DNA of 64,000 nt from assembly GCF_044704955.1 (NCBI RefSeq), contig NC_091982.1, forward strand, positions 256,432,001-256,496,000, given 5' to 3'. This stretch comes from Pristiophorus japonicus (taxonomy: Eukaryota). The notes beneath the pieces were generated by a model, which did no database searches, was not told the origin of the DNA, and worked only from the letters and a program-made list of their open reading frames with translations. Both the position numbers and the translations under genes were made by a program. Below, one piece after another: positions 3,801 through 59,294 of the stretch; position 1 is the first letter of the stretch, and each line of letters starts with the position of its first letter.

Positions 3801-4180
3801 AACATTCCTCTCAACTCTATGGCATGGATTTGCTCTCATTCTTGACTCTATAGGATGACTATCACTCCCTTGTCTGCAGGATGCCTTCTCTCCCTATTCT
3901 CCGTGAAGTGGTTTACCTCTCTCTCTTATCATGGGGTGAGATTCCCTCCCACCTCTGTGATCTCTGCAGAATGACTTATCTTTGTGTACCTAATGTCTTG
4001 CCCACCACAAGTCCCTCTCCACAATGTCCTGCGAGTCTATTTTACCCTTCTTCCTGAGCATAACAGCTTGTTGTCTCACCCTCCCAAGTTTTGTCTTTAT
4101 TTTCTTTTGGGACAATCGCCCCTTTCTGCGATGCTCAGTCTCTCCCTCTCTCCACTGTCTGATGAGCGTGGGGTTTGTGA

Positions 4181-5465
4181 GTCTCCACCTATTCTCCCCG
4201 GGACGGTCTCCACCTATTCTCCCCGGGACGGTCGGCCTCCACCTATTCTCCCCGGGACGGTCTCCACCTATTCTCCCCGGGACGGTCGGCCTCCACCTAT
4301 TCTCCCCGGGACGGTCAGTCTCCACCTATTCTCCCCGGGACGGTCGGCCTCCACCTATTCTCCCCGGGACGGTCGGCCTCCACCTATTCTCCCCGGGACG
4401 GTCGGCCTCCACCTATTCTCCCCGGGACGGTCGGCCTCCACCTATTCTCCCCGGGACGGTCGGCCTCCACCTATTCTCCCCGGGACGGTCGGCCTCCACC
4501 TATTCTCCCCGGGACGGTCAGCCTCCACCTATTCTCCCCGGGACGGTAGGTGTCTCCACCTATTCTCCCCGGGACGGTCAGCCTCCACCTATTCTCCCCG
4601 GGACGGTCGGCCTCCACCTATTCTCCCCGGGACAGTCTCCACCTATTCTCCCCGGGACGGTCAGTCTCCACCTATTCTCCCCGTGACGGTCAGTCTCCAC
4701 CTATTCTCCCCGGGACGGTCAGTCTCCACCTATTCTCCCCGGGACAGTCTCCACCTATTCTCCCCGGGACGGTCAGTCTCCACCTATTCTCCCCGGGACG
4801 GTCAGTCTCCACCTATTCTCCCCGGGACGGTCAGTCTCCACCTATTCTCCCTGGGACGGTCAGTCTCCACCTATTCTCCCCAGGACGGTCAGTCTCCACC
4901 TATTCTCCCCGGGACAGTCTCCACCTATTCTCCCCGGGACGGTCAGTCTCCACCTATTCTCCCCGGGACGGTCAGTCTCCACCTATTCTCCCCGGGACGG
5001 TCAGTCTCCACCTATTCTCCCCGGGACGGTCAGTCTCCACCTATTCTCCCCGGGACGGTCAGTCTCCACCTATTCTCCCCGGGACGGTCAGTCTCCACCT
5101 ATTCTCCCCGGGACGGTCAGTCTCCACCTATTCTCCCCGGGACGGTCAGTCTCCACCTATTCTCCCCGGGACGGTCAGTCTCCACCTATTCTCCCCGGGA
5201 CGGTCAGTCTCCACCTATTCTCCCCGGGACGGTCAGTCTCCACCTATTCTCCCCGGGACGGTCAGTCTCCACCTATTCTCCCCGGGACGGTCAGTCTCCA
5301 CCTATTCTCCCCGGGACGGTCAGTCTCCACCTATTCTCCCCGGGACAGTCTCCACCTATTCTCCCCGGGACGGTCAGCCTCCACCTATTCTCCCCGGGAC
5401 GGTCAGCCTCCACCTATTCTCCCCGGGACGGTCAGCCTCCACCTATTCTCCCCGGGACAGTCTCC
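4181..5465. repeat. 29-bp minisatellite (with 25-bp variants), about 45 units, in AGFG1 intron 1
   Basis: Unit gtctccacctattctccccgggacggtca, repeated head-to-tail with no spacers. Confidence 0.97.
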
Positions 5466-5900: not shown

Positions 5901-5944
5901 TGGGTGCCAAGGGGAGGAGCTGCACCTAAACCATCGTCAATCAA

Positions 5945-6430
5945 TCGCAGGCAGTCCCTTGGAGTGCAGGAAGACTTGCTTCCACTCTAAAAGTGAGTTC
6001 TCAGGTGACTGAACAGTCCAATACGGGAATTACAGTCTCTGTCACAGGTGGGGCAGACTGTGGTTGAAGGAAAGGGTGGGTGGGGTGCCTGGGTTTGCCG
6101 CACGCTCCTTCCGCTGTCCGCGCTTGCTTTCCGCACGCTCCCGGCGACGAGACTCGAGGTGCTCCGCGCCCTCCCCGATGCTCTTCCCTCCATTTTCGGC
6201 GGCCGAGGGCCAGGGATTCCCAGGTGCCTGTGGGGGATGTTGCGCTTTATCCAGGAGGCTTTGACGGTGTCCTCGAAGCGTTTCCTCCGCCCACCTGCTG
6301 CTCGCTCGCCGTGTCGGAGCTCCGCGTAGAGCGCTTGCTTGGGGAGTCTCGTGTCGGGCATGCGGTATGATGTGGCCCGCCCAGCGGAGCTGATCGAGCG
6401 TGGTCAATGCTTTGACGCTGGGGATGTTAA
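5945..6430 (-). mobile_element. RTE-clade LINE 3' fragment
   Basis: QLRWAGH..PDTRLPKQALY..CPTCDRDCNSRIGLFSHLRTH, the C-terminal C2H2-like motif. Confidence 0.9.
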
Positions 6431-6589
6431 ACCACTCAATGAGGACACTTTAAGGATGCCAGATTTCCTTCCCTAATTTCCTACATTACAGCAGTGACTG
6501 CACTCCAAAAAATACTTCATTGGCTGTAAAGCGCTTTAAGACATCCGGTGGTCGTGAAAGGCTACGGTACACCGAGGGACTGGAATGTG

Positions 6590-10309: not shown

Positions 10310-13300
10310 CTTTCCTGCTGGAAACTAGCAACTGGAAACATTGTAACAACTGGAGGCTGTAACAGATGGAAACATTGAAACAACTGGAGACACTGAAACA
10401 CTGGGCAACATTGTAACATGTGAGTGATCACAGTATGGTTGAATTTGTAATACAGATTGAGGGTGAGGAAGTAGTGTCTCAAACGAGCGTACTATGCTTA
10501 AACAAAGGGGACTATAGTGGGATGAGGGCAGAGTTGGCTAAAGTAGACTGGAAACACAGGCTAAACGGTGGCACAATTGAGGAACAGTGGAGGACTTTTA
10601 AGGAGCTCTCTCATAGTGCTCAACAAAAATATATTCCAGTGAAAAACAAGGGCGGTAAGAGAAGAGATAACCAGCCGTGGATAACCAAGGAAATAAAGGA
10701 GAGTATCAAATTAAAAACCAATGTGTATAAGGTGGCCAAGGTTAGTGGGAAACTAGAAGATTGGGAAAATTTTAAACGACAGCAAAGAATGACTAAGAAA
10801 GCAATAAAGAAAGGAAAGATAGATTACGAAAGTAAACTTGCGCAAAACATAAAAACAGATAGTAAAAGCTTTTACCGATATATAAAACGGAAAAGAGTGA
10901 CTAAAGTAAATGTTGGTCCCTTAGAAGATGAGAAGGGGGATTTAATAATGGGAAATGTGGAAATGGCTGAGACCTTAAACAATTATTTTGCTTCGGTCTT
11001 CACAGTGGAAGACACAAAAACCATGCCAAAAATTGCTGGTCACGGGAATGTGGGAAGGGAGGACCTTGAGATAATCATTATCACTAGGGAGGTCGTGCTG
11101 GACAGGCTAATGGGACTCAAGGTAGACAAGTCCCCTGGTCCTGATGAAATGCATCCCAGGGTATTAAAAGAGATGGCGGAAGTTATAGCAGATGCATTCG
11201 TTATAATCTACCAAAATTCTCTGGACTCTGGAGAGGTACCAGCGGATTGGAAAGCAGCTAATGTAATGCCTCTGTTTAAAAAAGGGGGCAGGTAACTATA
11301 GGCCGGTTAGTTTAACATCTGTAGTGGGGAAAATGCTTGAAGCTATCATTAAGGAAGAAATAGCGGGACACCTAGATAGGAATAGTGCAATCAAGCAGAC
11401 CACAACATGGATTCATGAAGGGGAAATTATGTTTAACTAATTTACTGGAATTCTTTGAGGATATAACGAGGATGGTGGATAAAGGTGTACCGATGGATGT
11501 GGTGTATTTAGATTTCGATAAGGTGCCACACAAAAGGTTACTGCAGAAGATAAAGGTACGTGGATGCAGAGGAAATGTATTAGCATGGATAGAGAATTGG
11601 CTGGCTAACAGAAAGCAGAGAGTCGGGATAAATGGGTCCTTTTCGGGTTGGAAATCAGTGGTTAGTGGTGTGCCACAGGGATCGGTGCTGGGACCACAAC
11701 TGTTTACAATATACATAGATGACCTGGAAGAGGGGACAGAGTGTAGTGTAACAAAATTTGCAGATGACACAAAGATTAATGGGAAAGTGGGTTGTGTAGA
11801 GGACACAGAGAGGCTGCAAAGAGATTTAGATAGGTTAAGCGAATGGGCTAAGGTTTGGCAGATGGAATACAATGTCGGAAAATGTGAGGTCATCCACCTT
11901 GGAAAAAAAAAACAGTAAAAGGGAATATTATTTGAATGGGGAGAAATTACAACATGCTGCGGTGCAGAGGGACCTGGGGGTCCTTGTGCTTGAATCCCAA
12001 AAAGTTAGTTTGCAGGTGCAGCAGGTAATCAGGAAGGCGAATGGAATGTTGGCTTTCATTGTGAGAGGGATGGAGTACAAAAGCAGGGAGGTCCTGCTGC
12101 AACTGTACAGGGTATTGGTGAGGCCGCACCTGGAGTACTGCGTGCAGTTTTGGTCACCTTACTTAAGGAAGGATATACTAGCTTTGGAGGGGGTACAGAG
12201 ATGATTCACTAGGATGATTCCAGAGATGAGGGGGTTACCTTTGATGATAGATTGAGTAGACTGGGTTTTTACTCGTTGGAGTTCAGAAGGATGAGGGGTG
12301 ATCTTATATAAACATTTAAAATAATGAAAGGGATAGACAAGATAGAGGCAGAGAGGTTGTTTCCACTGGTCGGGGAGACTAGAACTAGGGGGCACAGCCT
12401 CAAAATACGGGGGAGCCAATTTAAAACCAAGTTGAGAAGGAATTTCTTCTCCCAGAGGCTTGTGAATCTGTGGAATTCTCTGCCCAAGGAAGCAGTTGAG
12501 GCTAACTCATTGAATGTATTCAAATTACAGATAGATAGATTTTTAACCAATAAGGGAATTAAGGGTTATTAGGAGCGGGCGGGTAAGTGGAGCTGAGTCC
12601 ACGGCCAGATCAGCCATGATCTTGTTGAAAGGCGGAGCAGGCTCGAGGGGCTAGATGGCCTACTCCTGTTCCTAATTCTTATGTTCTTATGTTCTAACAA
12701 CTTAAAACTAGCAATTGGAAACATTGAAACAACTGGAGACGCTGAAACAATGGGTAACATTGTAACAACTTAAAACTAGCAATTGGAAACATTGAAACAA
12801 CTGGAAACAGTAACCACTGGAAACATTGCAACAGCTTGAAACTGTAGCAACTGGAACCATTGTAACTGAAAGATGTAACGGCTGGAAATATTGAAACAGC
12901 TGGAAACACTGAAATAGCTGGAAACATTGTGACAACTGGAAGTTGTAACAACTGGATACTGTAACAACTGGAAACTTACAACCGAAAAGATTGTAATAGC
13001 TGGAAACATTGTAACAACTGGAAACTAAAACAGCTGGAAACTCACAACTGGAAAAATTGAAACAGCTGGAAACTGTAGCAACTGGAAACTAGCGACTGGA
13101 AACATTGTAACAACTGAAAGCTGTAACAATTGGAGACATTGCAACAGCTGGAAATGTTGTAACAGCTGGAAACTAACAACTGGAAACATTTTAACAGCTG
13201 GAAACATTGTAACAGCTGGAAACTAACAACTGGAAACATTGTAGCAACTAGAAACTAGCAACTGGAAACATTGAAACAGGTGGAAAATTGTAACAGCTGG

Positions 13301-13620
13301 AAATATTGGAATAACTAGAAACTAACAACTGGAAACATTGTAGCTACTAGAAGCTAGCAACTGGAAACATTGAAACAACTGGAAATATTGCAACAGCTGG
13401 AAACATTGTAATAGCTAGAAACTAACAACTGGAAACATTGTAGCTACTAGAAACTAACAACTGGAAACATTGAAACTACTGGAAATATTGCAACAGCTGG
13501 AAACATTGTAACAGCTGAAAATTGTAACACTGAACATTTCAACAGCTGGAAACATTGAAACAACTGTAAAAATGGAAACAATTGGAAACATTGCAACAGC
13601 TGGAAACTGAAATGATTGCA
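10310..13620. repeat. Degenerate short-period tandem repeat (ctggaaaca/ttgtaacaa/ctagcaa subunits), interrupted by CR1 10420-12694
   Basis: The same motif occurs at 10310-10419 and 12695-13620. Confidence 0.9.
10420..12694 (+). mobile_element. 5'-truncated CR1 LINE (family B, TTCTTATG tail), frameshifted
   Basis: RT ORF fragments 10420-11295, 11385-11918, 11872-12204 and 12324-12572. Confidence 0.95.
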
Positions 13621-14067
13621 AACATTTATCTGCTCATTATCACATTGCTGTTTGTGGGAGCTTGTTTGTGCGCAAATTGGCTGCCCACATTACAACAGTG
13701 ACAACACTCCAAAAGTACTTAATTGGCTGCAAAGCGCTTTGAGACATCTGGTCGTAAAAGGCGCTATATAAATCCAAGTCTTTCTTTCCTTCATGCGGGG
13801 GTAGTGTCTCATCTCCATTTGCTCCCCACCTTGACACCATGGTGGTAAACCCTTAATCTGTTGCTCTGCTCAGGGTGCTAGTTCTTTGTGCATGCCACAC
13901 CAGAAACAGAACTCCCCAGTCTTTACAAAGTCAGTTGGAAGATGAATCTAATGGCGAAAAAATTCTGAGGTTTGACAAGTGGTAAGGACCATCCTTGTAT
14001 AGTCAGTATTTTAGCTGTGGTGCTTAGAATGCCATTGTGGCAAGGCTGCAGTTGGTGCTGCAGCAAG

Positions 14068-16385: not shown

Positions 16386-17889
16386 TCAGGATCTTTGCAC
16401 AACTAGATTCACCATTTGCAGGATCAGGTTCAGCTGGTGTCTCCTGATTATCAAAAGCTGTGCAGCATGCAGCACACCACAACTAATTCGGAGACCTGTT
16501 GAGGGGAATATTGAAGGCTGCCTCCAGAGTGGTCCAGGCATCGGAAACGTTGCTTGAGTACCCCAAGTGTCTGTTCGATGATGTTCAATGGCTGCATGGC
16601 TGTCATTATAGCGCTGTGGTGGGGTTTCGGAGGAGGGAGGGGGGAGGTCATGAGCCAGGTGGCCAAGCTGTAACCTTTGTCCTTGATCAGCCAGCCCTGC
16701 CCTTAGTCGCTGAAACATTTGTGGCACACTTCTCTCACGCAAGATGAGAGCAGAGTGTGCACTGCCTGGATAGTGGGCATTGACTGTGAGGATGCATTGC
16801 GTGTGGTTGCAGACCAGCTGGATGTTTAGGGAGTGGTAACCCGTTTGGTTTCTGAACACCTCTGCATTGTATAATGGTGCTCGCAAGGCGACGTGTGTGC
16901 AGTCAATGGCTCCTTGAACCTTCGGAAAGCCTGCAATTCTTCCAAATCCTGAAGCCCTCTCATTCTGGATGTCCCTGCTCATTGGGAACTTTATGAAATT
17001 CATTCTGCAGGTGTACAGTTCCCTTGTAACTTGGCGAACGCAGCTATGTGCAACGTGTTGAGTATATTGCATATGTCCCCTGCTGCTGCCTGGAAGGAGC
17101 CAGAAGCCTAGAAGGCCAGCGCTGCAGTCACCTTCACCTTGATGGGCAGTGCAGCCCTGTTGGCGCTGGTAGGCTGTAGGTCTGCCTGTAGGAGCTGGCA
17201 TATCTCTGTTAGCACTTCTTTTCAGAAGCACAGCCTTCTAACGTACTGCGCCTCAGAGGGATGGCGGTATGAGCGATGTTCCCTGTAAACCCACGGGAGA
17301 TAAGGCATCCTCCCCACACGTCTTCGAATCCGTGGCCCAACATGGCCGAGAACCCTTCTTCCCCTGCTTGAAGCCGCCTGCCAATAGCTACCAGCATGAT
17401 ACACTAGCAAACTAGTACTGCCCCCATTGAAATCTCTCAGTGGCCTTGCAAGCAAAGTGTCACGGCACATAACGGTGCCGTTTGCAACTCGGAGCCTCAT
17501 GCAGTGTGCTGCGTGCAACCGTAGCAGTCACTGACAACTGCGATATAAAATCCTCCAGCCTTCGTTTAAATATGCTGCCAATAGCATCTGCTGCACCCTG
17601 GGACTGCCTGGTTTTTTCAGGCGTTTCCTGGGGCGGATGTTAAATGAGGTGTTACGGCCGAAAGTTTCATCCGGAGCACTAGTGCAACCTTGCACGACGA
17701 TTGACATCATCATCATGCTAAAAACAGAGTGGGGGTGGGGGTATAATACGTTTTTGCACTGGCACTAATCAGTAGCCGATTCTACCGGCCGGGCGGTAAA
17801 TCCTGGATGCCCGACGTTACGCTCAAAAACAGCATTTAACACCCCATGGGGGCACTAACCGAGGTACAAATGAGCCGAAAATCCAGCCC
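16386..17889 (-). mobile_element. Decayed PIF/Harbinger transposon (HARBI1-like DDE transposase, frameshifted)
   Basis: GFPKVQGAIDCTHV, YHSLNIQLVC, YPGSAH and IEQTLGVLKQRFRCL motifs. Terminal GGGCTGGATTTT at 17889. Confidence 0.85.
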
Positions 17890-21879: not shown

Positions 21880-23021
21880 TTTCTCGCCGCAATTCTCCAC
21901 CTCAGAGTCAACAAGCTCCCCGCTGGAGTGGAACTAAACTACAGAACCAGTGGGAACCTGTTCAACCTGCGCCGTCTCCAGGCCAGATCCAAGATCACCC
22001 CAACCTCTGTCGTCAAGCTACAGTACACGGACGATGCCTGTGTCTGCGCACATACAGAAGATGCACTCCAGGACATAGTCAACGTATTTACTGAGGCGTA
22101 CGAAAGCATGGGCCTTATGCTAAACAGAAGTCAAAGGTCCTCCACCAGCCTGTCCTCACCGCACAGCACTGCCCCCAGTCATCAAGATCCACAGCCCGGC
22201 CCTGGACACCATGGACCACTTCCCATATCTCGTGAGCCTCCTATCAACAAGAGCAGACATCGACGACGAGATCCAACACCACCTCCAGTGCGCCAGTGCA
22301 GCCTTCGGCTGCCTGAGGAAAAGAGTTTTTGAAGACCAGGCCCTCAAAACTGCCACCAAGCTCATGGTCTACAGGGCTGTAGTAATACCCGCTCTCCTGT
22401 ATGGCTCAGAGACATGGACCATGTACAGTAGACACCTCAAGTTGCTGGAGAAATATCACCAATGATGTCTCCGCAAGACCCTACAAATCCCCTGGGAGGA
22501 CAGACGCACCAACATCAGCGTCCTCATTCAGGCTAACATCCCCAGTATTGAAGCACTGACCACACTCGATCAGCTCCGCTGGGCAGGCCACATAGTTCGC
22601 ATACCAGACACGAGACTCCCAAAGCACGTGCTCTACTCGGAGCTCCTTCACGGCAAACGAGCCAAAGGTGGGCAGTGGAAACGCTACAAGGATATCCTCA
22701 AAGCCTCCCTGATAAAGTGCAACATCTCCACTGACACCTGGGAGTCCCTGGCCCAAGACCGCCCTAAGCGGAGGAAGTGCATTCAGGAGGGCGCTGAGCA
22801 CCTCGAGTCTCGTCACCGAGAGCATGCAGAAATCAAGCGCAGACAGCGGAAAGAGCATGCGGCAAACCAGTCCCACCCACCCTTTCCTTCAATGACTATC
22901 TGCCCCACCTGTGACAGAGTCTGTGGTTCTCGTGTTGGACTGTTCAGCCACCAAAGAACTCACTTCAGGAGTGGAAGCAAGTCTTCCTCGACTCCGAGGG
23001 ACTGCCTATGATGATGATGAG
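21880..23021 (+). mobile_element. RTE-clade LINE, 5'-truncated, (ATG)n tail
   Basis: LQYTDD RT motif, LLYGSETW, QLRWAGH and the C2H2-like end; tail atgatgatgatga. Confidence 0.92.
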
Positions 23022-26100: not shown

Positions 26101-27324
26101 GAGGGGGAGGGAACATAGAAATCCTGCAAAGCTACCATATAGATAGCAAGAGCTTTTTCCTATTTTCCATTTTAATTTTTCAACACACTCCAGTTCCATC
26201 TCTTTATCTGTAGGCTCCCTTATCCCACATTACAAGTTGTTTACTATACTTGCAATTATTTCACCTCATTTCAGAATTCTAAATAGAGGAATTATGGAGA
26301 TGGCTAATATGCAATAATAAAGATTCATTCTAACTTAGGCAAAACTTCAGAGAATAGCAGAATGAAACAAAAAAGTGATAAAGCATCAATTGAGCTGTCC
26401 CCCCCCCTAATTTTCAATGTGTTTTAAACTGATTTTCTACCAGCAGAGGCTGTATTTTAACTGTTTACTACTCAGATTTTTAATAAAATTATGGTTATTT
26501 TGGGATAATGTATAATATCATTTTAAAGCATTTTTGCATTCTCTCTGTGCATGGTGCTTATATTGACCTATTTATAATGTTCATATATTAATGGGATAAA
26601 TTATTATTTTTGGAGCCTTGTAAATTTGATTGCAGATTGCCTGTAGGCTGCATTCTATCACTGTGTTTAATGTTGAATAAAGTACAGTGGGCTTGCTGTT
26701 GAATGCTTCCACCTGCCTAGTCCATAAAGTACCTAGTCTATATTATAGGTAATTTTCAAAGCATGTCGGTGGGTGAGAATATAGTTGTAATACTCCTTGC
26801 ATATTTTCATACTCCCATACCTTCGTTGTACCTTTATCCAGTTGTTCTCCCTCTTGTGATACTTGGGGAGGTGACACATCACTATAATCATATTTGCATG
26901 CATTATACACAGTAATTAAAAGAAAAATCAGATCCCATGCAGAACTAGGAATCAAGCTTATCAGGGAGAAAAAAAGTGAGTGAGTGGAAACCTGCTATAA
27001 GGAGTGGGTGGGGTCGGGTAAATGCCAGTAAGTGGTGGCCATATGGAATTCAACAGAACAGTTTATGATCTTAATTGATGACAAATAAGTTTCCCTGCTC
27101 AGCATTGCTTTTAAAGTTAGATCAAAGCCATGAGCTACATATTGGAACCCAGGTGTAATGGCTAAGTTTTGCCCTTTCAGTATTTCAAAACATCAGATTC
27201 ATCAAATTAGAATGGGAACTCAACATCCTTCTGCAATACAAGATTAATTTACAATATTAAAGTATGTGTCAATCAGAAAGCAAACTAAAATAATTAGCAA
27301 CATTAACATATCAAAGTGATCCAA

Positions 27325-27925
27325 CCATCATCATAATCATAGGCAGTCTCTCGAAATCGAGGAAGACTTGCTTCCACTCTAAAAGTGAGTTCTTAGGTGA
27401 CTTAACAGTCCAATACAGGAATTACAGTCTCTGTCACAGGTGGGACAGTCGTTGAAGGAAAGGGTGGGTGGGGAATCTGGTTTGCCGCACGCTCCTTCCT
27501 CTGCCTGTGCTTGCTTTCTGCATGCTCTCGGCAACGAGACTCGAGGTACTCAGCGCTCTCCCGGATGCTCTTCCTCCACTTAGGGCGGTCTTTGGCCAGG
27601 GACTCCCAGGTGTCGGTGGGGATGTTGCATTTTATCAAGGAGGCTTTGAGGATGTCCTTGAAACGTTTCCCCTGCCCACCTGGGGCTTGCTTGCCGTGTA
27701 GGAGTTCCGAGTAGAGCGCTTGCTTTGGGAGTCTTGTGTCAGACATACGAACAATGTGGCCCGCCCAACGGAGCTGGTCGAGTGTGGTCAGTGCTTCGAT
27801 GCTGGGGATGTTGGCCTGATCGAAGACGCTAACGTTGGTGCGTCTGTCCTCTCAGAGGATTTGCAGGATCTTGCGGAGACATCGTTGGTGGAATTTCTCC
27901 AGTGATTTGAGCTGTCTACTGTATA
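27325..27925 (-). mobile_element. RTE LINE 3' fragment
   Basis: Same family as 21880-23021; (ATG)-like tail at about 27327. Confidence 0.9.
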
Positions 27926-28019
27926 TCAACAGGATGCTCTCTTGCACTGAACAAGTTTCTCGCAAAATTAAAATCAAATGGATAATATATAGGTCACTGT
28001 AAGCAGTTTAAAATAAAAG

Positions 28020-29444: not shown

Positions 29445-29905
29445 ATAGAAAATACAGCACAGAAACAGGCCATTCGGCCCATGCTGATATTTATGCTCCA
29501 CTCAAGCCCCCTCCCATCCTTCCTCATCTAACTCTATCAGCATTACCCTCTATTCCCTGCTCTCTCATTTGCTTGTCCCTGTGGTAGCGAGTTCCACATT
29601 CTCACTACTCTCCGGGTAAAGAAGTTTCTTCTGAATTCCCCATTTGATTTCTTGGTGACTATCTTACATTGATGGCCTCTAGTGTTTCTCTTCCCCACAA
29701 GTGGAAACACTTTTTCTGTGTTTACTCCAACAAAACTGTTCATAACTTTAAAGACCTGTATTAGGTCACCCCTCAGCCTAGCTGGTTCATCCTTTCATGA
29801 TAGGTATAACCTCGCAGTTATGGGATCACCTTGTAAATCTTTTTTGCACCCTCTGCAGTGCCTCTATATCCTTTTTTATAAAATGGTGGCCAGAACTGTA
29901 CACAG
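29445..29905 (-). mobile_element. Old CR1 3' fragment
   Basis: RRNFFTRRVVRMWNSLP remnant. Confidence 0.7.
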
Positions 29906-35275: not shown

Positions 35276-35933
35276 AACGCAGAGAAGCCACAAAGTTGGC
35301 TGATATAGGAAGTGCTACTGAGTTTTGTGGTTAAAGCACATTCTTGGGGCAAAATAGAGGGAGTTTTACTCTGCATCTGGCTTGCTGTACCTGCTGCAGA
35401 ATAAATTTAATGCTACATGGTAGTAGTGGAAAAAACATTTCATTCCCCATTGCTGACATCTCTCACCTCACTAAGCACAAACATTCAAAAAAAGGTGTAA
35501 ACTAAAGGAATGGAAAGCTCAAAGTTCAACCAGAATAGATCAACTCTTGCCAAACGTCAAACACAAAGGGTTCCATTGTCCTAGCTCTTTGGCTTCATGT
35601 ATAAATGCAATTTCTCTGTGATACCAGCACTTCTCTTCCAACAATCTTCATTAAAATGTCCCCTCCAATCACTCGATATATCAATGGCTATTTGTTTTTA
35701 AGTCCTTCTGCCCTCTTCACTATTTGTTCAGCCTGACTCTACAAGATCCACGCTATAGAATTTCCGACATAAACCCCCTTCCATACTATCTTCTTTAAGG
35801 ACCAACTTAAAACTCACCACTTTGACCATGTTTTTGGTTACCACTCCTAATATCTCCTTTTTTTGTCTCATACAATCATACAGCACAGAAGGAGTCCATT
35901 TGGCCCATTCTATCTATCTCAGCCTTGAATATA

Positions 35934-36146
35934 TATATATTTTTTTAATTTTTCGTTGCCAATCTTTCCAATTCTTTGTCAAATCACAAACGCCAGAGGT
36001 CACCTTGCACACATCAAGGATCACTCTGCGCCAATGCTCTTCGCCAAAAGGACGAGAGCCACTGCACCATTCCTGGAAGTACTGCAATACCAGGTTCGTG
36101 CCATGGAGGTGGATGGGTCAATCCACCCCACCCACCTCCTATTTCC
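35934..36146 (-). mobile_element. U2 snRNA-derived retroposon (SINEU-like, or 3' end of a larger element) inserted in a CR1 fragment
   Basis: The minus strand contains CCTGGTATTGCAGTACTTCCAGGAATGGTGCA (U2 stem-loop IV) and an A-rich tail. 18-bp TSD atctcagccttgaaYata at 35916-35933 and 36147-36164. Confidence 0.8.
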
Positions 36147-36364
36147 ATCTCAGCCTTGAACATACTCAATGATTCAGCATCCACAGCCCTATGGGTAGAG
36201 CATTCCAAAGATACACAACCCTCTGAGTGAGTAAAATTCCTCCTCATCTCAGTCTTAAATGGCTGACCCCTTATCCGGAGACTGTTCCCCCTAGATCTAG
36301 ACTCATTGAAACATACAAGATTCTGAGGGAGATTGACAGGGTAGATGCGGAGTGGTTGAAAGAG

Positions 36365-39300
36365 CTTTGCAATCTGTTAATAAAGGATGATATCAGGGCA
36401 GTTGTGAGAGACGATATTGGCTCTAATGAACAAAATGTTGAATCATTGTGGGTGGAGATTAGAGATAGTAAGGGGAAAAAGTCACTGGTGGGCGTAGTTT
36501 ATAGGCCCCCAAATAATAACTTCACGGTGGGGCGGACAATAATCAAGGGAATAATGGAGGCATGTGAAAAAGGAACGGCAGTAATCATGGGGGATTTTAA
36601 CCTACATATCGATTGGTCAAATCAAATCGCACGGGGTAGCCTGGAGGAGGAATTCATAGAATGCATACGGGATTGTTTCTTAGAACAGTATGTTACAGAA
36701 CCTACAAGGGAGCAAGCTATCTTAAATCTGGTCCTGTGTAATGAGACAGGAATAATAAACGATCTCCTCGTAAAAGATCCTCTCGGAATGAGTGATCACA
36801 GTATGGTTGAATTTGTAATACAGATTGAGGGCGAGGAAGTAGTGTCTCAAACGAGCATACTATGCTTAAACAAAGGGGACTACAGTGGGATGAGGGCAGA
36901 GTTGGCTAAAGTAGACTGGAAACACAGACTAAACGGTGGCACAATTGAGGAACAGTGGAGGACTTTTAAGGAGCTCTTTCATAGTGCTCAACAAAAATAT
37001 ATTCCAATGAAAAAGAAGGGCGGTAAGAGAACGGATAACCAGCCGTGGATAATCAAGGAAATAAAGGAGAGTATCAAATTAAAAACCAATGCTTATAAGG
37101 TGGCCAAGGTTAGTGGGAAAATAGAAGATTGGGAAAATTTTAAACGACAGCAAAGAATGACTAAGAAAGCAATAAAGAAAGGAAAGATAGATTATGAAGG
37201 TAAACTTGCGCAAAACATAAAAACGGATAGTAAAAGCTTTTACAGATATATAAAACGGAAAAGAGTGACTAAAGTAAATGTAGGTCCCTTAGAAGATGAG
37301 AAGGGGGATTTAATAATGGGAAATGTGGAAATGGCTGAGACCTTAAACAATTATTTTGCTTCGGTCTTCACAATGGAAGACACAAAAACCATGCCAAAAA
37401 TTGCTGGTCACAGGAATGTGGGAAGGGAGGACCTTGAGACAATCACTATCACTAGGGGGGTAGTGCTGGACAGGCTAATGGGACTCAAGGTAGACAAGTC
37501 CCCTGGTCCTGATGAAATGCATCCCAGGGTATTAAAAGAGATGGCGGAAGTTATAGCAGATGCATTCGTTATAATCTACCAAAATTCTCTGGACTCTGGG
37601 GAGGAACCAGTGGATTGGAAAGTAGCTAATGTAATGCCTCTGTTTAAAAAAGGGGGCAGACAAAAGGCAGGTAACTATAGGCTGGTTAGTTTAACATCTG
37701 TAGTGGGGAAAATGCTTGAAACTATCATTAAGGAAGAAATAGCGGGACATCTAGATAGGAATAGTGCAATCAAGCAGACGCAGCATGGATTCGTGAAGGG
37801 GAAATCATGTTTAACTAATTTACTGGAATTCTTTGAGGATATAACGAGCATGGTGGATAGAGGTGTACCGATGGATGTAGTGTATTTAGATTTTCAAAAG
37901 GCATTCGATAAAGTGCCACTCAAAAGGTTACTGCAGAAGATAAAGGTACGCGGAGTCAGAGGAAATGTATTAGCATGGATAGAGAATTGGCTGGCTAACA
38001 GAAAGCAGTGAGTCGGGATAAATGGGTCCTTTTCGGGTTGGAAATCGGTGGTTAGTGGTGTGCCACAGGGATCGGTGCTGGGACCACAACTGTTTACATA
38101 GATGACCTGGAAGAAGGGACAGAGTGTAGTGTAACAAAATTTGCAGATGACACAAAGATTAGTGGGAAAGCAGGTTGTGTAGACGACACAGACAGGCTGC
38201 AAAGAGATTTAGATAGGTTAAGCGAATGGGCTAAGGTTTGGCAGATGGAATACAATGTCGGAAAGTGTGAGGTCATCCACCTTGGAAAAAAAACAGTTAA
38301 AGGGAATATTATTTGAATGGGGAGAAATTACAACATGCTGCGGTGCAGAGGGACCTGGGGGTCCTTGTGCATGAAACTCTTTTGGAGTAAACAACAAAAA
38401 CATTAAACCGTGCCCCCCGATCTGGGGGAACACCAACATTTACAAGGCCCTTTTTTTATTTTTTTATTTATTATATTTTTTGGGGGTTTTTTTGGGCACT
38501 CAAATAATATTATTTTTCCTAAGTGCCCCCTATAAAAGGGGAGGGGGACACTAAAAGCACCGGCAATTAAAACAAATTAACTTAAAAACATAAAATCAAA
38601 TTAAAATTTGGTTGCCGGGCGTGATGATGCACTCCAGTTCCTTGTGCATGAAACTCTTTTAGAGTCTACCTACAAAACATAAAACATTAAACCGTGCCAC
38701 CCGACATGGGTGACACACCAGACATTTATAAGGCCCTTTTTTTCCTTTTTTTTTTGTGTTTTTCTTTTTTTGGGGGGGTTTTTTTGGGCGCTAAAATCAA
38801 ATTTTTTCCAGTGCCCCCTATAAAAGGGAAGGGGGACACTAAAAGCACCGGCAATTAAAACAAATTAAACTTTAAAACGTAAAATCAAATTAAAATTTGG
38901 TTGCCGGGCGTGATGATGCACTCCAGTCCCTCCGGTGCCCACCTCTCGCGGAAGGCCGCGAGCGTACCGGTGGACACCGCGTGCTCCATCTCCAAGGACA
39001 CCCTGGACCGGATGTAAGAGCGGAAGAGAGGCAGGCAGTCAGGTCGAACGACCCCCTCGATCGCCCGCTGCCTGGACCGGCTGATGGCACCCTTGGCCGT
39101 GCCCAGGAGCAGTCCTACGAGGAGGCCTTCGGACTCCTTGTGCATGGAACTCTTTTTGGAGTTTATCTGCAAAAACAAAAAACATTAAACCGTGCCACCC
39201 TACCTGGGTGACACACCAGACATTTACAAGGCCCTTTTTTTTCCTTTTTTTGTTTTTTTTTGTGTTTTTCTTTTTTTTTGGGCACTAAAATCACAATTTT

Positions 39301-40335
39301 TCCCCAGTGCCCCCTATAAAAGGGAAGGGGGACACTAAAAGCACCGGCAATTAAAACAAATTAAACTTTAAAACGTAAAATCAAATTAAAATTTGGTTGC
39401 CGGGCGTGATGATGCACTTCAGTCCCTCCGGTGCCCACCTCTCGCGGAAGGCCGCGAGCGTACCGGTGGACACCGCGTGCTCCATCTCCAAGGACACCCT
39501 GGACCGGATGTAAGAGCGGAAGAGAGGCAGGCAGTCAGGTTGAACGACCCCCTCGACCGCCCGCTGCCTGGACCGGCTGATGGCACCCTTGGCCGTGCCC
39601 AGGAGCAGTCCTACGAGGAGGCCTTCGGACTCCTTGTGCATGAATCCCAAAAAGTTAGTTTGCAGGTAATCAGGAAGGCGAATGGAATGTTGGCCTTCAT
39701 TGCGAGAGGTATGGAGTACAAAAGCAGGGAGGTCCTGCTGCAACTGTACAGGGTATTGGTGAGGCCGCACCTGGAGTACTGTGTGCAGTTTTGGTCACCT
39801 TACTTAAGGAAGGATATACTAGCTTTGGAGGGGGTACAGAGACGATTCACTAGGTTGATTCCGGAGATGAGGGGGTTACCTTATGATGATAGATTGAGTA
39901 GACTGGGTCTTTACTCGTTGGAGTTCAGAAGGATGAGGCGTGATCTTATAGAAACATTTAAAATAATGAAAGGGATAGACAAGATAGAGGCAGAGAGGTT
40001 GTTTCCACTGGTCGGGGAGACTAGAACTAGGGGGCACAGCCTCAAAATACGGGGGAGCCAATTTAAAACCGAGTTGAGAAGGAATTTCTTCTCCCAGAGG
40101 GTTGTGAATCTGTGGAATTCTCTGCCCAAGGAAGCAGTTGAGGCTAGCTCATTGAATGTATTCAAATCACAGATAGATAGATTTTTAACCAATAAGGAAA
40201 TTAAGGGTTACGGGGAGCGGGCAGGTAAGTGGAGCTGAGTCCACGGCCAGATCAGCCATGATCTTGTTGAATGGTGGAACAGGCTCGAGGGGCTAGATGG
40301 CCCAATCCTGTTCCTAATTCTTATGTTCTTATGTT
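36365..40335 (+). mobile_element. CR1 LINE family B (part of the endonuclease plus RT), interrupted at 38376-39630
   Basis: YRPP, MGDFN and SDH endonuclease motifs, RT motifs, TTCTTATG tail. Confidence 0.95.
38376..39630 (-). mobile_element. Three tandem 5'-truncated 3' ends of a Tx1-like non-LTR retrotransposon (38376-38638, 38653-39134, 39149-39630)
   Basis: ORF2 C-terminus LLVGLLLGTAKGAI..R..FRSYIRSRVSLEMEHA..FRERW is typical of the Tx1/L1 group. Each unit is bounded by TCCTTGTGCATGRA. Confidence 0.8.
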
Positions 40336-42234: not shown

Positions 42235-42680
42235 TGGAGAGATTGAGTAGATTGGGCCTATACTCTCTGGAGTTTAGAAGAATGAGAGGAGATCTCACTG
42301 AAACATATAAGATTCTGAGGGGGCTCGACAGGGCAGATGCAGAGAGGTTGTTTCCCCCTGGCTGGAGAGACTTGAACTGGGGGGGGGGGGCATAGTCTCA
42401 GTTAAGGGGTCGGCCATTTAAGACTGAGATGAGGAGGAATTTCCTCACTCAGAGGGTTGTGAAATGTTGGAATTCTCTACCCATAGGGCTGTGGATGCTG
42501 AATCGTTAAATATATTCAAGGCTAAGATAGATAGATTTTTGGACTCTATGGGAATCAAGGGATATAGAGATGATGCAGGAAAATACAGTTGAGGTCGAAG
42601 GCCAGCCATGATCTTATTGAATAGCAGAGCTGGCTCAAGGGGCCATATGGACTACTCCTGCTCCTAATTCTTATGTTACT
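42235..42680 (+). mobile_element. CR1 3' fragment
   Basis: ORF2 end and 3'UTR. Confidence 0.8.
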
Positions 42681-42799
42681 CACAGAACCTGTAAATCTGC
42701 TCGAAACTCAGGCAATTGTTACTGTACCCAATGTAGTCTTTTGTTACTATTTACATGTGCAATCTACCCTACCCCTCTATAACTGCCCCAGTATCTTAC

Positions 42800-43268
42800 C
42801 TGGATAAATACGCTGGCTCGTTCAGGACCACTGCTCTCAAGCAAAGCTCCAACAAGAGCAAAGAACGTCTTTTGTAAAACCTCCTGTGGCACTGGGAACT
42901 TTGCACTTAGCACCAAGTCTTCCACAGCCAAGTTCCTGGCAACATGGCACACAATCTGTGAGCCTGTGATGTGACTAATAAGTGCCTTAACACCGTCGAC
43001 AGGCAGGTTTGGATAGGCACGGCTGAAACAGTCTTGGAGGTAAGCATCCGTAAACAATGAGCCTTTCTCAAATAATGCCTGATTGTCTTTGAGATTTAAA
43101 GTGGTATTCTCTTTGTTCAGTTCAAGTTCCCGCCTGCGTGCTTCCTCAGATGTAATGTAACAGGGATTAATGAATGCTATTTTGAGAAGATCCAGGTTGA
43201 AGGTCTCATGAAGACGTTGACCAAAGGCCTCGACTTCAGCATGATAGTCCCAGTTTGGCTGATGCGAT
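42800..43268 (-). CDS. MRPL44: MRPL44 exon 2 (RNase III-like domain)
   Basis: PNWDYHAEVEAFGQRL..DLLKIAFINP..CHVARNLAVE..FFALVGALLESSGPER; AG acceptor and GTAAG donor, 469 nt. Confidence 0.96.
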
Positions 43269-43979
43269 CTTACAATACAACAAACATTTTAAATTCAGTT
43301 CAGAACATGGATCATTGTTCCCCATTAAAGATTAACTATATTTGATAATACTTTTATTAAAATCATATTTATTTCAAATGCTGTACTACTACAACATATC
43401 TTGAACCCAGTCTCAAGACTTTTGGCAATACCACTCTGTACTGTTCGCTAGATAAATGAGATCATAGAATCATAGAATGGTTACAGCACAGAAGGCCATT
43501 CGACCCATCGAGCCCATGCCGATGACCCAGCTGTCTCATCTGCCAATTTTCCTTCCTTCTCTATGGGAAATCACTAGCCTCTATTTGATGCTTACACTCC
43601 CTCAAACAAACCAAGATCAAGATCTTGTCATGAGAATCACATCCTACCACTCCACGGCACAATACATCAATTGGCTGCATTAGTGGGCCACCAGTGCTCA
43701 GAAATAACTAGGAGACTACCAAGTCTCTGAGACGCATCTGATATTCTCTTACTCAGTGATCATGACAGCTTAATAGGACAATCACAGAACTATTATGAGT
43801 ATAGAATATAATACAGCAGATTAACATTCTTAGCCAACAGAAGTATTGTACAAATTTGTATGATATATTTGTATAATATAGATTAGGATCTTGATTACAG
43901 AATATACCATATATAATCCCAAACTATTGCAGCATATTATATTGCGACTGTAATCTACTGTATTCCATAGCCAAAGCAT

Positions 43980-49989: not shown

Positions 49990-52420
49990 GGCCCTGAAAT
50001 TACGGCCTCTCCGGGTGCGTACGATGTGCGCACACATGTGAAGAGGCCTCACAAGTTCAGGGTTTAGATGCGCGAAGCACATGTGCCTGAACCCGGCACA
50101 TGCAATCTGTTAAAATGTCTTTTGATAGATCGCAATCATCCCCGGGAAAAACACATTCGAGAGCAGATATTAGGCTATTTGTCCAACTCTTGCCCGGCGA
50201 ATGTACTTCAAAATCTTACGCCTGGTAAGGCCTGCTTTTACCAGCGGAAGAGTTTTAATAGATAGAAAAAATAAATGTTATTAATTTTATATTAAAAACC
50301 CTGTCTATGAAGGTAAGTTTATTTTTAACACTATTAAAACATTTTTTTAATTCAAAAAAATTAAATTTTTCTCTAAAACATTTAATTTAAAGCAATTTCC
50401 ATTAATTTTTTTAAAAGTGATGTTTTTTAAATTTATGTTTGTGTTTTATTTGATTTTAGGAGTATTCTACATAAGAACATAAGAAATAGGAGTAGGCCAT
50501 TTGGCCCATCGAGCTTGCTCCACCATTCAATATGATCATGGCTGATCTGATCTTGGCCTCAACTCCACTTTCCTGCCCACTCCCCATAACCCTTGACTCC
50601 TTTATCATTCAAAATCTGTCTATCTCCACCTTAAATATATTCAATGACCCAGCCTCCACAGCTCTCTGGGGATAGAGAATGCCACAGATTCACAACCCTC
50701 TGAGAGAAATAATTCCTTCTCATCTCCATTTTAAATGGGCGACCCCTTATTCTGAAACTATGCCCCCTAGTTCTAGATTCCCCCACAAGGGGAAACATCC
50801 TCTCTGCATCTACCCTGTCCAGCCCCCTCATAATCTTACAAGTTTCAATAAGATCACCTCTCATTCTTCTAAACACCAATGCGTATAGGCTCAACCTTTC
50901 TTCATAAGACAACCCCTTCATCTCAGGAATCAACCCCGTGAACATTCTCTGAACTGCCTCCAAAGCAAGTATATCCCTCCTTAAAGAAGGAGACCAAAAC
51001 TGTATGCAGTACTCCAGGTGTGGTCTCACCAATGCCCTGTACAGTTATGTGTGTCTACTGTATATGGTCCACATTTCTGAGCCATACAGGAGGGCGGGTA
51101 TCACTACAGCCCTGTAGACCATAAGCTTGGTGCCAGATTTGAGGGCCTGATCTTCGAACACTCTCTTCCTCAGGCGGCTGAAGGCTGCACTGGCGCACTG
51201 GAGGCGGTGTTGAACCTCGATGACTGCCCTTACTGATAATAGACTCCTGAGGTATGGAAAGTGGTCCATGTTGACCAAGGCCGCGCCGTGGATCAAGATC
51301 CTGCAAATCCCCTGGGAGGACAGACGCACCAACTTTAGTGTCCTCGATCAGGTCAATATCCCCAGCATCGAAGCACTGACCACACTCGACCAGCTCCGTT
51401 GGGCGGGCCACATTGTTCGCATGCCTGACACAAGACTCCCAAAGCAAGCGCTCTACTCGGAACTCCCACACGACAAGCGAGCCCCAGGTGGGCAGAGGAA
51501 ACGTTTCAAGGACACCCTCAAAGCCTCCTTGATAAAATGCAACATCCCATCGACACCTGGGAGTCCCTGGCCAAAGACCGCCCTAAGTGGAGGAAGAGCA
51601 TCCGGGAGGGCGCTGAGCACCTTGCGTCTCATCGCCGAGAGCAAGCAGAAAGCAAGCGCAGGCAGCGGAAGGAGCGTGCAGCAAATCAAGACTCCCCACC
51701 CATTCTTTCCTTCAATGACAATCTGTCCCACCTGTGACAGAGACTATAATTCCCGTATTGGACTGTTCAGTCACCCAAGAACTCACTTTTAGAGTGGAAG
51801 CAAGTCTTCCTCGATTTCGAGGGACTGCTTATGATGATGATGATGTACAATTGTAGCAGGACTTCCCTGCTTTTATACTCTATTCCCCTTGCAATAAAGG
51901 CCAACATTCCATTTGCCTTCCTGATTACTTGCTGTACCTGCATGCTACCTTTTTGTGTTTCGTGCACAAGGACCCCCAGATCCCTCTGTACCGCAGCATT
52001 TTGTAATCTTTCTCCATTGAAATAATAATTTGATTTTTTATTTTCTCTACCAAAGTGGATAACCTCACATTTTCCCACATTATACTCCTTCTGCCAAATA
52101 TTTACCCACTCATTTAGCCTATCTATATCCATTTGCAGATTATTTGTGTGTTAGTTTGCCAACCTGAAAATGACCCATTTATCCCAATGCTCATAGCTCC
52201 CGTTACTATTAATCAGAATAGTACGTTGTGATTGGCGGTCCAGGCCCATGTGATCCCAGGATGCGCAGACACTCCTGGAATACGTGAGCCTCTGCGCAGG
52301 GCTGGGGCTGTGCCTCTAGGTCTCAGAGCGCAAGTGTTCATTCCTCTTGGACCACCAAGTGCTTTCGTAAAAACAGTTTTTCGGTCGGGCTCATCCACCC
52401 ATGACCGCAATCTTTGGCCC
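49990..52420. mobile_element. Harbinger-like MITE hosting a CR1 (about 50470-52185, -), which itself hosts an RTE
   Basis: Imperfect TIRs ggccctgaaatt/aatctttggccc; flanks aat/aac; homologous to 23411-23945. Confidence 0.7.
51047..51843 (+). mobile_element. RTE LINE with an inverted 5' segment (about 51047-51294)
   Basis: Antisense DHFPYL..LLYGSEMWTIYSRH followed by sense KILQIPW..RTHF and an (ATG)n tail; TSD tgtacaRtt. Confidence 0.88.
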
Positions 52421-57052: not shown

Positions 57053-59294
57053 TTGAGAGCGGATCTCATAGAAACATAAAATTCTGACGGGACTGGACAG
57101 GTTAGATGCAGAATGTTCCCGATGTTGGGGAAATCCAGAACCAGGGGACACAGTCTAAGGATAAGGGGTAAGCCATTTAGGACTGAGAAGAGGAAAAAAT
57201 TCTTCACTCAGAGAGTTGTTAACCTGTGGAATTCCCTGCCGCAGAGAGTTGTTGATGCCAGTTCATTGGATATATTCAAGAGGGAGTTAGATATGGCCCT
57301 TACGGCTAACGGGATCAAGGGGTATGGAGAGAAAGCAGGAATGGGATACTGAGGTGAATGATCAGCCATGATCTTATTGAATGGTGGTGTAGGCTCGAAG
57401 GGCCGAATGGCCTACTCCTGCACCTGTTTTTTATGTTTCTATGTATTCTTTGGAACAGAGTTAAGATGTATAAATTTGAGGGGCCTAGATAGAGTGGATA
57501 GGAAGGACTACTCTTGCACCTATTTTTTATGTTTCTATGTTTTCTTTGGAACAGAGTTAAGGTGTATGAATTTTAGGGGCCTAGAAAGAGTGGATAGGAA
57601 GGACCTATTTCCCTCAGCAGAGGGATCAACAACCAGGGGGCATAGATTTAAAGTAAATGGTAGGAGGTTTAGAGGTGATTTGAGGATAATTCTTTTCACG
57701 CAGAGGGTGGTGGGAGTATGGAACTCACTGTCTGAAAGGGTGGTAGAGGCAGAAACCCTGACCACTTTAAAAAAAGTACTTGTATGTTAGGCACTTTAAG
57801 TGCATATCCAAGGCTACGGACTAAGTGCTGGAAAGTGGGATTAGGCTGGATAGCTCTTTTTCGGCTGGCACGGACATGGGTCGAAATAGCCTCCTTCAGT
57901 GCTGTAAATTTCTATGATTTCGAAGAAGAGCCAGGGAGTTATCCCCAGTGTCTTGGCCAATATTTATTCCATTATCAAAATAACAAAAAACATATCTGGT
58001 CATTATCACATTGCTGTCTGTGGGAGCTTGCTCGTGTGTAAATTGGATGCTGCGTTTGCTACATCACAACAGTGACTACACTCCAAAAGTACTTAATTGG
58101 CTGTAAAGCGTTTCGAGACATCCGGTGGTCATGAAAGGCGCTATATAAATCCAAGTCTTTTCAAAGTTGTTCACAATCACAAATTCTTAAATGCCTAGAA
58201 ATTTAGCCAAAGCTTACAGTGCCCCCAAAAGCGAAAGAGCTTGCCTTTATATAGCATCTTTAATGTAGGAAGCCATCTCAAGACACTTCACAGAAATGTA
58301 ATCAGACAAAAATGGACACAGCCAAAGGAGGAGATAACTGGAAGGAGTGACAAAGCTTGGTCAGAGTTGGGTTTTAAGGAGTGTCTTAAAGGTAAAAGTT
58401 TAAGGAGGGAATTCCAGAGCTGTGGGCTTGGACAGCTGAAGGCACAGCCGTTAATAGCAAAGGGATTTTCTGATGCACACGGGGCCAGAGTTGGAGGAAC
58501 GCAGAGTTCTTAGAGGAATGTAGGGCTGGGAAAGGTCAGAGATAGGAAGGGGTGAGGCCATGAAGGTGTTTGAACAGGAGGTTGAGAATTTTAAATTTGA
58601 GGTGCCGAGGGAACAGGAGCCAAAAAGCAGTCTGAATCTCACCCTTACGACATGTAAAGACAAGTTAGACTTAAAAGTGGAATGATATATATATATTGCC
58701 ATAACTTAAGCTGCAGTACAACAGTGGTTGACGAAGGAATTACTTGATATAAAAGGCAAACAAGTTTTACAGCAAAATCGGAGGTTATGTCCTCCTCGCC
58801 CCAAAATTACATTGTTGAATTTTGAGACATTTTGGAGCCTACTGTAGTCACTGTCATAATGTAGTACAGTTTGATGATTTTCCTCTTGGGGTGTCCAAGA
58901 TTTTGTTTTAATGGGTAATGTAGGGGGTATACCTTGGAGCCATACTAATTTGCATATATCTCATTGTTAACAGATCTTGGTGGTATGATGTAGGATTTAT
59001 TCACCAATGACGCAATATAGTATTCGCAAGAGCCCTTTTCAAATCTCCAGGCACACGAAATTCAAACAGGACAAACCACTAAATAAGAACTGGGCTTCAA
59101 GGACCCTATTGTCTTGGCTCAGAGGTTGCATAATGCCCCCAGGAGCACCCCTATCCTACACTATGATCCATCATCTCTACTTCTGAATTAAAAAAGTCAG
59201 TTCCTGATTAACCATGAAATTACTGCACAAGAGGAAACAGCGTGTCAATTAACATCCCTGCTGAATCACAGAGAAACACTCCAGAAATTAAAAC

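Follow-up and report, generated by a model that had tools for sequence, protein, structure and literature searches.

A probable SINEU-like retroposon copy built from U2 snRNA pieces in the genome of the sawshark Pristiophorus japonicus

Short interspersed elements headed by pieces of small nuclear RNAs, the SINEUs, are described only from crocodilians in the part of Kojima 2015 (PMC4494074) drawn on here. In that account the 5' ends of the elements are proposed to have grown by repeated addition of U1 and U2 pieces through template switching, with at least three U2 additions in SINEU-1. SINEU-3 combines U2 pieces of 32 nt and 83 nt with about 40 unique nucleotides, a poly(A) end and a 16-nt duplication. 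The SINEUs contain an oligo(T) stretch internally but lack a Pol III promoter; they are mobilised by Tx1-Mar, and in the crocodilian genomes they show a target preference for Mariner-N4. They are the one described SINE class in which the head lacks an internal promoter, and both their transcription and the reason for retaining snRNA pieces are stated there to be open questions.

U2 is also known from other products of retrotransposition. Among the human U2 retrocopies treated in the consulted part of PMC4476161, 57 of 58 are truncated at the 3' end and a single one is joined to a repeat. Two non-LTR elements, Keno of the Tx1 clade and Utopia, insert between nt 38 and 39 of U2, according to the portion of PMC4640811 used here. 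In literature outside Repbase, Dfam and the subscription journals we found no report of an snRNA-derived SINE from a shark, and the part of a paper on chondrichthyan SINEs that we drew on (PMC5499810) contains no mention of snRNA.

We describe here an insert of about 215 nt that lies on the minus strand, between the two copies of a duplication, in a 64-kb stretch of Pristiophorus japonicus DNA (the window), which is vertebrate DNA rich in CR1 LINE fragments. We lean towards reading it as one copy, probably truncated at its 5' end, of a non-autonomous and non-coding SINEU-like shark retroposon made from U2 pieces, a reading we hold to be somewhat better than an even bet. The features of the locus are collected in Table 1. 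The U2 reference throughout is human U2 as printed in the consulted part of bioRxiv 10.1101/2021.08.01.454689, and the column counts were made by eye.

Table 1. Features of the insert and its host CR1 fragment, in positions of the window
Feature	Position	Strand	Remarks
Host CR1 3' fragment, upstream of the insert	36165..36304	-	87% to the paralogue at 42386-42531
Target-site duplication, 5' copy	36147..36164	-	exact part 36147-36160; last base shared with the start of the U2 match; continuous with the CR1 paralogues
U2 nt 104-115 (directly after the Sm site, Sm site itself excluded)	36136..36147	-	12/12 by eye; Rfam model from position 105
Rewritten U2 stem-loop III, 13-bp hairpin with 9-nt loop	36105..36139	-	19/31 columns match U2 nt 116-144 by eye
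U2 stem-loop IV	36063..36104	-	core 36095-36070 = U2 nt 153-178, 26/26
U2 5'-end piece (nt 4-29), separated from the preceding U2 3' end by a 3-nt linker	36035..36059	-	22/26 columns by eye
Unique tail, 81 nt, one moderate hairpin	35954..36034	-	nothing notable in Rfam; the only copy in the window
A-rich end: A5, TT, A7, five TA units	35930..35953	-	last two TA units may belong to the duplication
Target-site duplication, 3' copy	35916..35933	-	exact part 35916-35929
Host CR1 3' terminus, downstream of the insert	35868..35915	-	without about 105 nt present in CR1 paralogues

The anatomy of the insertion is confirmed. The two duplication copies are identical over 14 nt, agree at 17 of 18 positions when extended, and at 19 of 21 in the widest register. 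An earlier, sequence-only reading of this DNA had given an 18-bp target-site duplication inside a CR1 3' fragment; the duplication does exist, but not as a perfect 18, and the location is borne out by seven CR1 paralogues that align with both flanks. The aligned 3' ends of these paralogues, all from the same window, represent the empty site: all seven are uninterrupted and none carries the insert. A poly(A) end together with a long duplication points to machinery of the L1/Tx1 type, going by the hallmarks given in the consulted part of PMC4476161. The duplication and the A-rich end show that the sequence arrived by target-primed reverse transcription. The earlier reading had also suggested a preference for a CR1 site. 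With nine CR1 copies as queries, however, at least 29% of the window is CR1-like, so that a landing in CR1 is unremarkable, and a single site in DNA so rich in CR1 does not sustain a preference.

The host CR1 copy has some peculiarities of its own. The gap of about 105 nt begins 7 bases beyond the 3' duplication, and the missing stretch is present in all seven aligned paralogues; the host 3' terminus downstream of the insert is closer to repeat copies at 29452-29485 and 57876-57917 than to the nearest paralogue. The 5'-most 55 nt or so of the host are inverted, with 36303-36358 on the plus strand joined to 36304-35868 on the minus strand in a manner that resembles a 5'-inversion, twin-priming-like junction. 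Such 5' inversions (twin priming) are best known from mammalian L1. The inverted piece adjoins a long plus-strand CR1 with endonuclease and reverse transcriptase domains (ORF 36227-38011). It is worth pointing out that the upstream flank at 36158-36168 (minus strand) is unlike all seven aligned paralogues and loosely like the 38|39 target of Keno and Utopia in U2. A Keno-like target was considered for this flank and rejected, as the likeness is only loose and the downstream copy disagrees with it.

The insert opens with the 3' domain of U2. The earlier reading had proposed an Infernal search with the Rfam U2 model (RF00004), and this search did recover the domain: in a scan of 141 nt, 36064-36147 matched model positions 105-185 of 192 with 25.5 bits and an E-value of 9.5e-4, a value that applies to that short scan only, the score being below the U2 gathering score of 46. 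At the gathering score, a scan of the whole window returned no matches, and a scan of 701 nt returned four weak matches, none of them to U2. Rfam matches to miRNA, PrrB/RsmZ, the prion pseudoknot, RAGATH-7 and ST7-AS2, with E-values of 0.3-10, were dismissed as chance hairpin matches. By eye, the segment directly after the Sm site is found as claimed, and the comparison with human U2 continues with the blocks at nt 116-144 and 153-178 given in Table 1, separated by nt 145-152 (6 of 10 columns) and followed by nt 179-185 (6 of 7), for a total of 69 of 86 columns. Neither Rfam nor the comparison by eye finds U2 nt 30-103, the region of branch-point recognition, stems IIa/IIb and the Sm site, anywhere in the insert. 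Because these elements are absent, an RNA read from the insert can have no role in splicing. As a whole, the insert folds better than 197 of 200 shuffled sequences.

The best preserved module is stem-loop IV, which had been described as near-intact and is so, its core being identical to U2. It retains the U-U closing pair and the A1, G7 and U8 of the loop that binds U2B''/U2A', all of which are conserved in vertebrates (PMC4114683, in the part consulted). On these sequence grounds the stem-loop is predicted to bind U2B''/U2A'. Its folding is not exceptional, with 27 of 200 shuffles doing as well.

Behind this 3' end, in the reverse of U2's own order, stands a piece from the U2 5' end. The motif of U2 nt 8-29 matches 36035-36056 with 3 mismatches (19/22); this is its sole match in the window, and none was obtained in 100 shuffles, so that the segment once described as resembling stem-loop I does align to U2. 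A scan of the window with the longer motif of nt 4-29 at 3 mismatches gave no match on account of a 1-nt gap, and three Rfam scans of the stem-I piece or the tail gave 2, 2 and 0 matches, none to U2. It now folds as a 9-bp hairpin whose loop is a run of four T (36049-36046), a fold equalled by 5 of 200 shuffles. Three of its four changes add pairs, though in a shifted register; the stem is thus re-registered and not covaried. A tandem of two SINEU-3-like units was considered for this arrangement and set aside, as just 3 nt separate the modules, with no intervening tail or duplication.

An ordinary U2 pseudogene that decayed in place, with the likeness to stem I and the hairpins arising by chance, would account for an Rfam score under the gathering cut-off and for a stem-I piece that Rfam misses. 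It is at odds with the unique match to U2 nt 8-29 and with the duplication, whose near-intact state agrees poorly with 20% decay. The U2-derived part differs from human U2 at 17 of 86 columns (about 20%), while the duplication copies agree at 14/14 or 17/18 positions; if each copy had decayed by 19%, agreement at 14 of 14 would have a probability of 0.0035 and agreement at 17 or more of 18 a probability of 0.007. This comparison argues that most of the divergence from U2 predates the insertion, so that there was a diverged source RNA and the template was already a diverged U2 derivative, on the assumption that sawshark U2 is close to human U2. The differences are also clustered: the longest identical run is 26 (P 0.017), and taken with a second run of 12 the probability falls to 0.003, a figure obtained post hoc. 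In stem III the U2 sequences of human and mouse differ little, as seen in the consulted part of 10.1101/2021.08.01.454689, and human U2 variants are expressed with 42 and 55 mostly structure-keeping changes (10.1101/2020.01.24.917260, likewise in part). A variant U2 gene is a possible source, and some of the differences may be at the level of species or variant. In-place decay of an ordinary U2 pseudogene is largely refuted by these comparisons, and we give it hardly any probability. The duplication, the A-rich end, the U2 modules in reversed order and the foreign tail, together with a divergence that contrasts with a near-perfect duplication, support a retrotransposed insert, and the earlier opinion that this is not a simple U2 pseudogene was right.

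The changes in stem-loop III deserve a closer look. Its arms (36139-36127 and 36117-36105) form 12 Watson-Crick pairs and one G-U pair, in agreement with the claim of a 13-bp stem at the position of stem III that has diverged and yet is fully paired. The fold has a z-score of -4.55, with none of 200 shuffles equally good, and it is the sole hairpin of at least 13 bp (at most one G-U, loop of at most 12) on both strands of the 64 kb. The outer pairs are inherited from U2, one bulge has closed up and the inner stem has been built anew. Read as an inverted copy, the 5' arm agrees with the 3' arm at 12 of 13 positions. Palindrome-correcting mutagenesis is a known mutation process, and a single event of this kind could have produced the near-perfect inverted arms. 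Two double-sided changes appear only under the less parsimonious of two alignments, the one with more gaps. To call the stems "compensated", as the sequence-only reading did, is therefore too strong, given that the stem-I piece is re-registered and the double-sided changes of stem III depend on the alignment. Null simulations took the hairpin of the element itself as their starting point. After 10 random substitutions, no fewer than 12 of the 13 pairs could still form in 1.9% of 100,000 trials, and 5.2% of 5,000 trials with 10 substitutions folded at or below -18 kcal/mol, a threshold chosen arbitrarily; with 10 substitutions and 2 deletions, 20.9% of 5,000 trials folded into 12 pairs or more. 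These mixed outcomes lend weak support to selection on stem III.

The rest of the insert is foreign to U2. The unique tail and the A/AT end are present as described, the tail being 81 nt long. Its folding is ordinary, with 68 of 200 shuffles as good for the whole tail and 14 of 200 for its hairpin, and no link to any LINE was made. Just after the hairpin the tail holds a minimal Sm-site-like heptamer (35985-35979, minus strand), short enough to occur by chance. The Pol III box and Sm-site patterns were sought by their familiar consensus forms. The insert contains no box B and one box-A-like 11-mer, at 36069-36059; the four-T run in the stem-I hairpin is of a kind that terminates Pol III depending on context and does not always stop it (PMC4758252, in the part consulted). 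With an internal four-T run and no box B, transcription would most likely be RNA polymerase II read-through that starts at a promoter upstream of the element or beside it. The insert shows no coding remnant.

The tail and the order of the modules bear on a further explanation, in which the insert is the processed copy of a host RNA: a U2-like snRNA in circularly permuted order, with a 5' half that has diverged to become the tail. The observed order would follow if the permutation had been opened at the Sm site, from the nucleotides after the Sm site through the 3' domain to the 5' end, and the heptamer in the tail could be counted in its favour. The tail, however, has no U2 match by Rfam or by eye, its folding does not exceed that of shuffled sequences (68 of 200 as good), the branch-point sequence is absent, and a poly(A) end is unlike the spliceosomal snRNAs. 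We regard this explanation as very improbable. Somewhat less improbable, though still doubtful, is that we are looking at the 3' end, shortened by 5' truncation, of an autonomous LINE of the Tx1/L1 type that captured U2 modules in its 3' untranslated region. An ATTAAA lies at 35949-35944 (minus strand) within the A7 run. A hexamer resembling a poly(A) signal directly in the A-run is typical of L1-type 3' ends, and short 5'-truncated copies are the usual product of LINEs. Some crocodilian Tx1-Mar LINEs carry U1 or U2 pieces, though at the 5' end (PMC4494074, in the part consulted); indeed, the snRNA pieces of LINEs in the consulted parts of PMC4494074 and PMC4758252 sit 5' and not 3', and the insert has no remnant of coding sequence.

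Among the described systems, the closest likeness is to the SINEUs, and the comparison made by the sequence-only reading proves apt. The 5' part derives from U2 snRNA, as SINEU heads derive from U1 or U2; the insert is non-coding, is under 500 bp in this possibly truncated copy of about 215 nt, and ends in 3' poly(A); and it has an internal oligo(T) (36049-36046) with no complete Pol III promoter. Like SINEU-1, it carries U2 pieces ahead of an element that already started with a short U2 piece, and a unique 3' part without a LINE match. It differs from SINEU-1 in its shark host, in having U2 pieces only and in its CR1 target in place of Mariner-N4, the comparison being one of descriptions. SINEU-3 resembles it in having two U2 pieces of comparable lengths (32 and 83 nt, as against about 26 and 85 nt in the insert), a short unique tail, poly(A) and a duplication, of 16 nt in SINEU-3. 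In SINEU-3, however, the pieces stand in U2's own order, as by an internal deletion, and are reversed here, although the U2 domain of the 83-nt piece is known by its size only; and there are about 1,600 SINEU-3 copies with a strong target preference, as against one known copy here, in a 64-kb window. Descent from the crocodilian SINEU-1, -2 or -3 is not indicated: the host is a shark, and Kojima 2015, in the part drawn on, gives no SINEU from outside crocodilians. This is probably a SINEU-like retroposon in a new lineage.

The other systems are more distant. The snRNA-LINE chimeras treated in part of PMC4476161 share with the insert a head-to-tail junction between the 3' end of an snRNA and a second RNA, with a flanking duplication, but these chimeras and the pseudogenes described with them scarcely differ from the parent snRNA and each arose once, whereas the insert has both U2 ends and rewritten stems. 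Keno and Utopia are, similarly, non-LTR elements tied to U2, and a U2 5' fragment attached to the tail of a LINE could have come from them; the insert, in contrast, has a 5' piece that ends at nt 29, lacks nt 30-103 and any ORF, and shows no 38|39 junction with U2 from nt 39 onward as its 3' flank.

On the preferred reading, that of a SINEU-like shark retroposon, the insert may have come about in four steps. A U2 5' fragment of about 29 nt would first have been joined to an unrelated tail of about 80 nt with a terminal A-run. By analogy with SINEU-1 and with chimeras of U6 and L1, the reverse transcriptase of a LINE, on arriving at the 5' end of this RNA, would then have jumped to the 3' end of U2 or a U2-like RNA and copied the 3' domain, giving the order of 3' domain, 5' hairpin and tail, for which a circular intermediate is unnecessary. 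The pattern of divergence suggests that the product, or the U2 variant from which it derived, went on evolving as an RNA source, with stem-loop IV fixed and stems III and I turned into stronger hairpins. An RNA was finally copied into the CR1 fragment by target-primed reverse transcription, as the anatomy shows, with a duplication of 14-18 nt and the A-rich end; the enzyme would most likely be an L1/Tx1-type LINE, to judge from the poly(A) and the long duplication. SINEU-1 is described as having gained U2 pieces at its 5' end again and again, so that the reversed order calls for no special mechanism, and what looks like a permutation is, by this analogy, explained most simply by template jumping that attached a U2 3' end to an RNA with a U2 head.

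How far this reading can be pressed depends on the number of copies. Searches of the 64-kb window with blastn and with nhmmer --max found only the element itself and no second copy. Two scans of GTDB contigs for exact patterns gave no matches, blastn against plasmids and phages gave none, and word-based protein searches with two translated frames gave no candidates; GTDB is centred on prokaryotes, the protein searches are indirect, and these searches have no bearing on copy number in the shark. A HMMER search with the third, antisense frame returned one protein (E <= 0.001), of 538 aa, with eight matched stretches and an E-value of 4e-13, in which the best stretch covers the U2-derived part of the insert; this may reflect related modules in a tandem array.

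A single copy in 64 kb counts in favour of a one-off chimeric retrocopy. In that case a reverse transcriptase working on a U2-headed or unrelated polyadenylated RNA jumped once to a diverged sawshark U2 variant and stopped at the Sm site, and the two-module unit never was a multiplying family. Chimeras of snRNAs and repeats with duplications are well described (PMC4476161), many SINEU-2 5' extensions arose independently (PMC4494074), and structure-keeping U2 variants are found in human (10.1101/2020.01.24.917260), each in the part of the source consulted. The 5' end of the insert lies exactly after the Sm site, perhaps by chance; arrest of the reverse transcriptase at an Sm ring sitting on the RNA would fit as well. 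The 5' region of U2 pairs with U6, and a working U2 variant should retain it; the changes in the stem-I piece, however, alter the very stretch that pairs with U6. Both U2 pieces have also changed towards stronger hairpins, and U2 chimeras are rare among the 58 human retrocopies mentioned above (1/58; PMC4476161, in the part consulted). We take the one-off origin to be unlikely, though it is the strongest of the competing explanations. Should the insert prove to exist only once, it would be a chimeric retrocopy and no more than a modest curiosity.

Were the family real, it would offer an independent origin for comparison with the crocodilian one. An unchanged protein-binding stem-loop IV amid rewritten neighbours suggests why U2 pieces might be retained, in a form open to testing. 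Alu, for example, uses SRP9/14. One could go further and propose a shark retroposon family, or a LINE 3' end, independently rebuilt from U2 modules, in which selection keeps stem-loop IV so that U2B''/U2A', as spliceosomal proteins, are recruited to stabilise the RNA or assist its nuclear trafficking, in the way of Alu with SRP9/14. SINEU-type elements would then have arisen a second time, with convergence on a 5' hairpin and a U2 3' domain but in reversed order; as a model of the whole this seems to us unlikely, if worth stating.

There are several other features in the window. An exon of the mitochondrial ribosomal protein mL44 lies at 42767-43288 on the minus strand and is 100% identical to a Pristiophorus japonicus UniRef entry, with at most 87% identity to the other 108 proteins among the matches listed. 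A DDE_Tnp_4 transposase fragment is found at 16389-17237 (minus strand, E 7e-9). Tandem arrays occupy 4180-5462, 12692-13626 and 38362-39644; they comprise 45 copies of a 29-bp unit, a degenerate array based on 18 bp, and duplications of 289/496 bp beside CR1 copies. A repeat family other than CR1, of some 500-600 bp and 82-92% identical, is present at 5929-6449, 22186-23020, 27323-27926 and 51051-51845, and one of its ORFs has a weak C2H2 zinc-finger match (E 9.5e-4).
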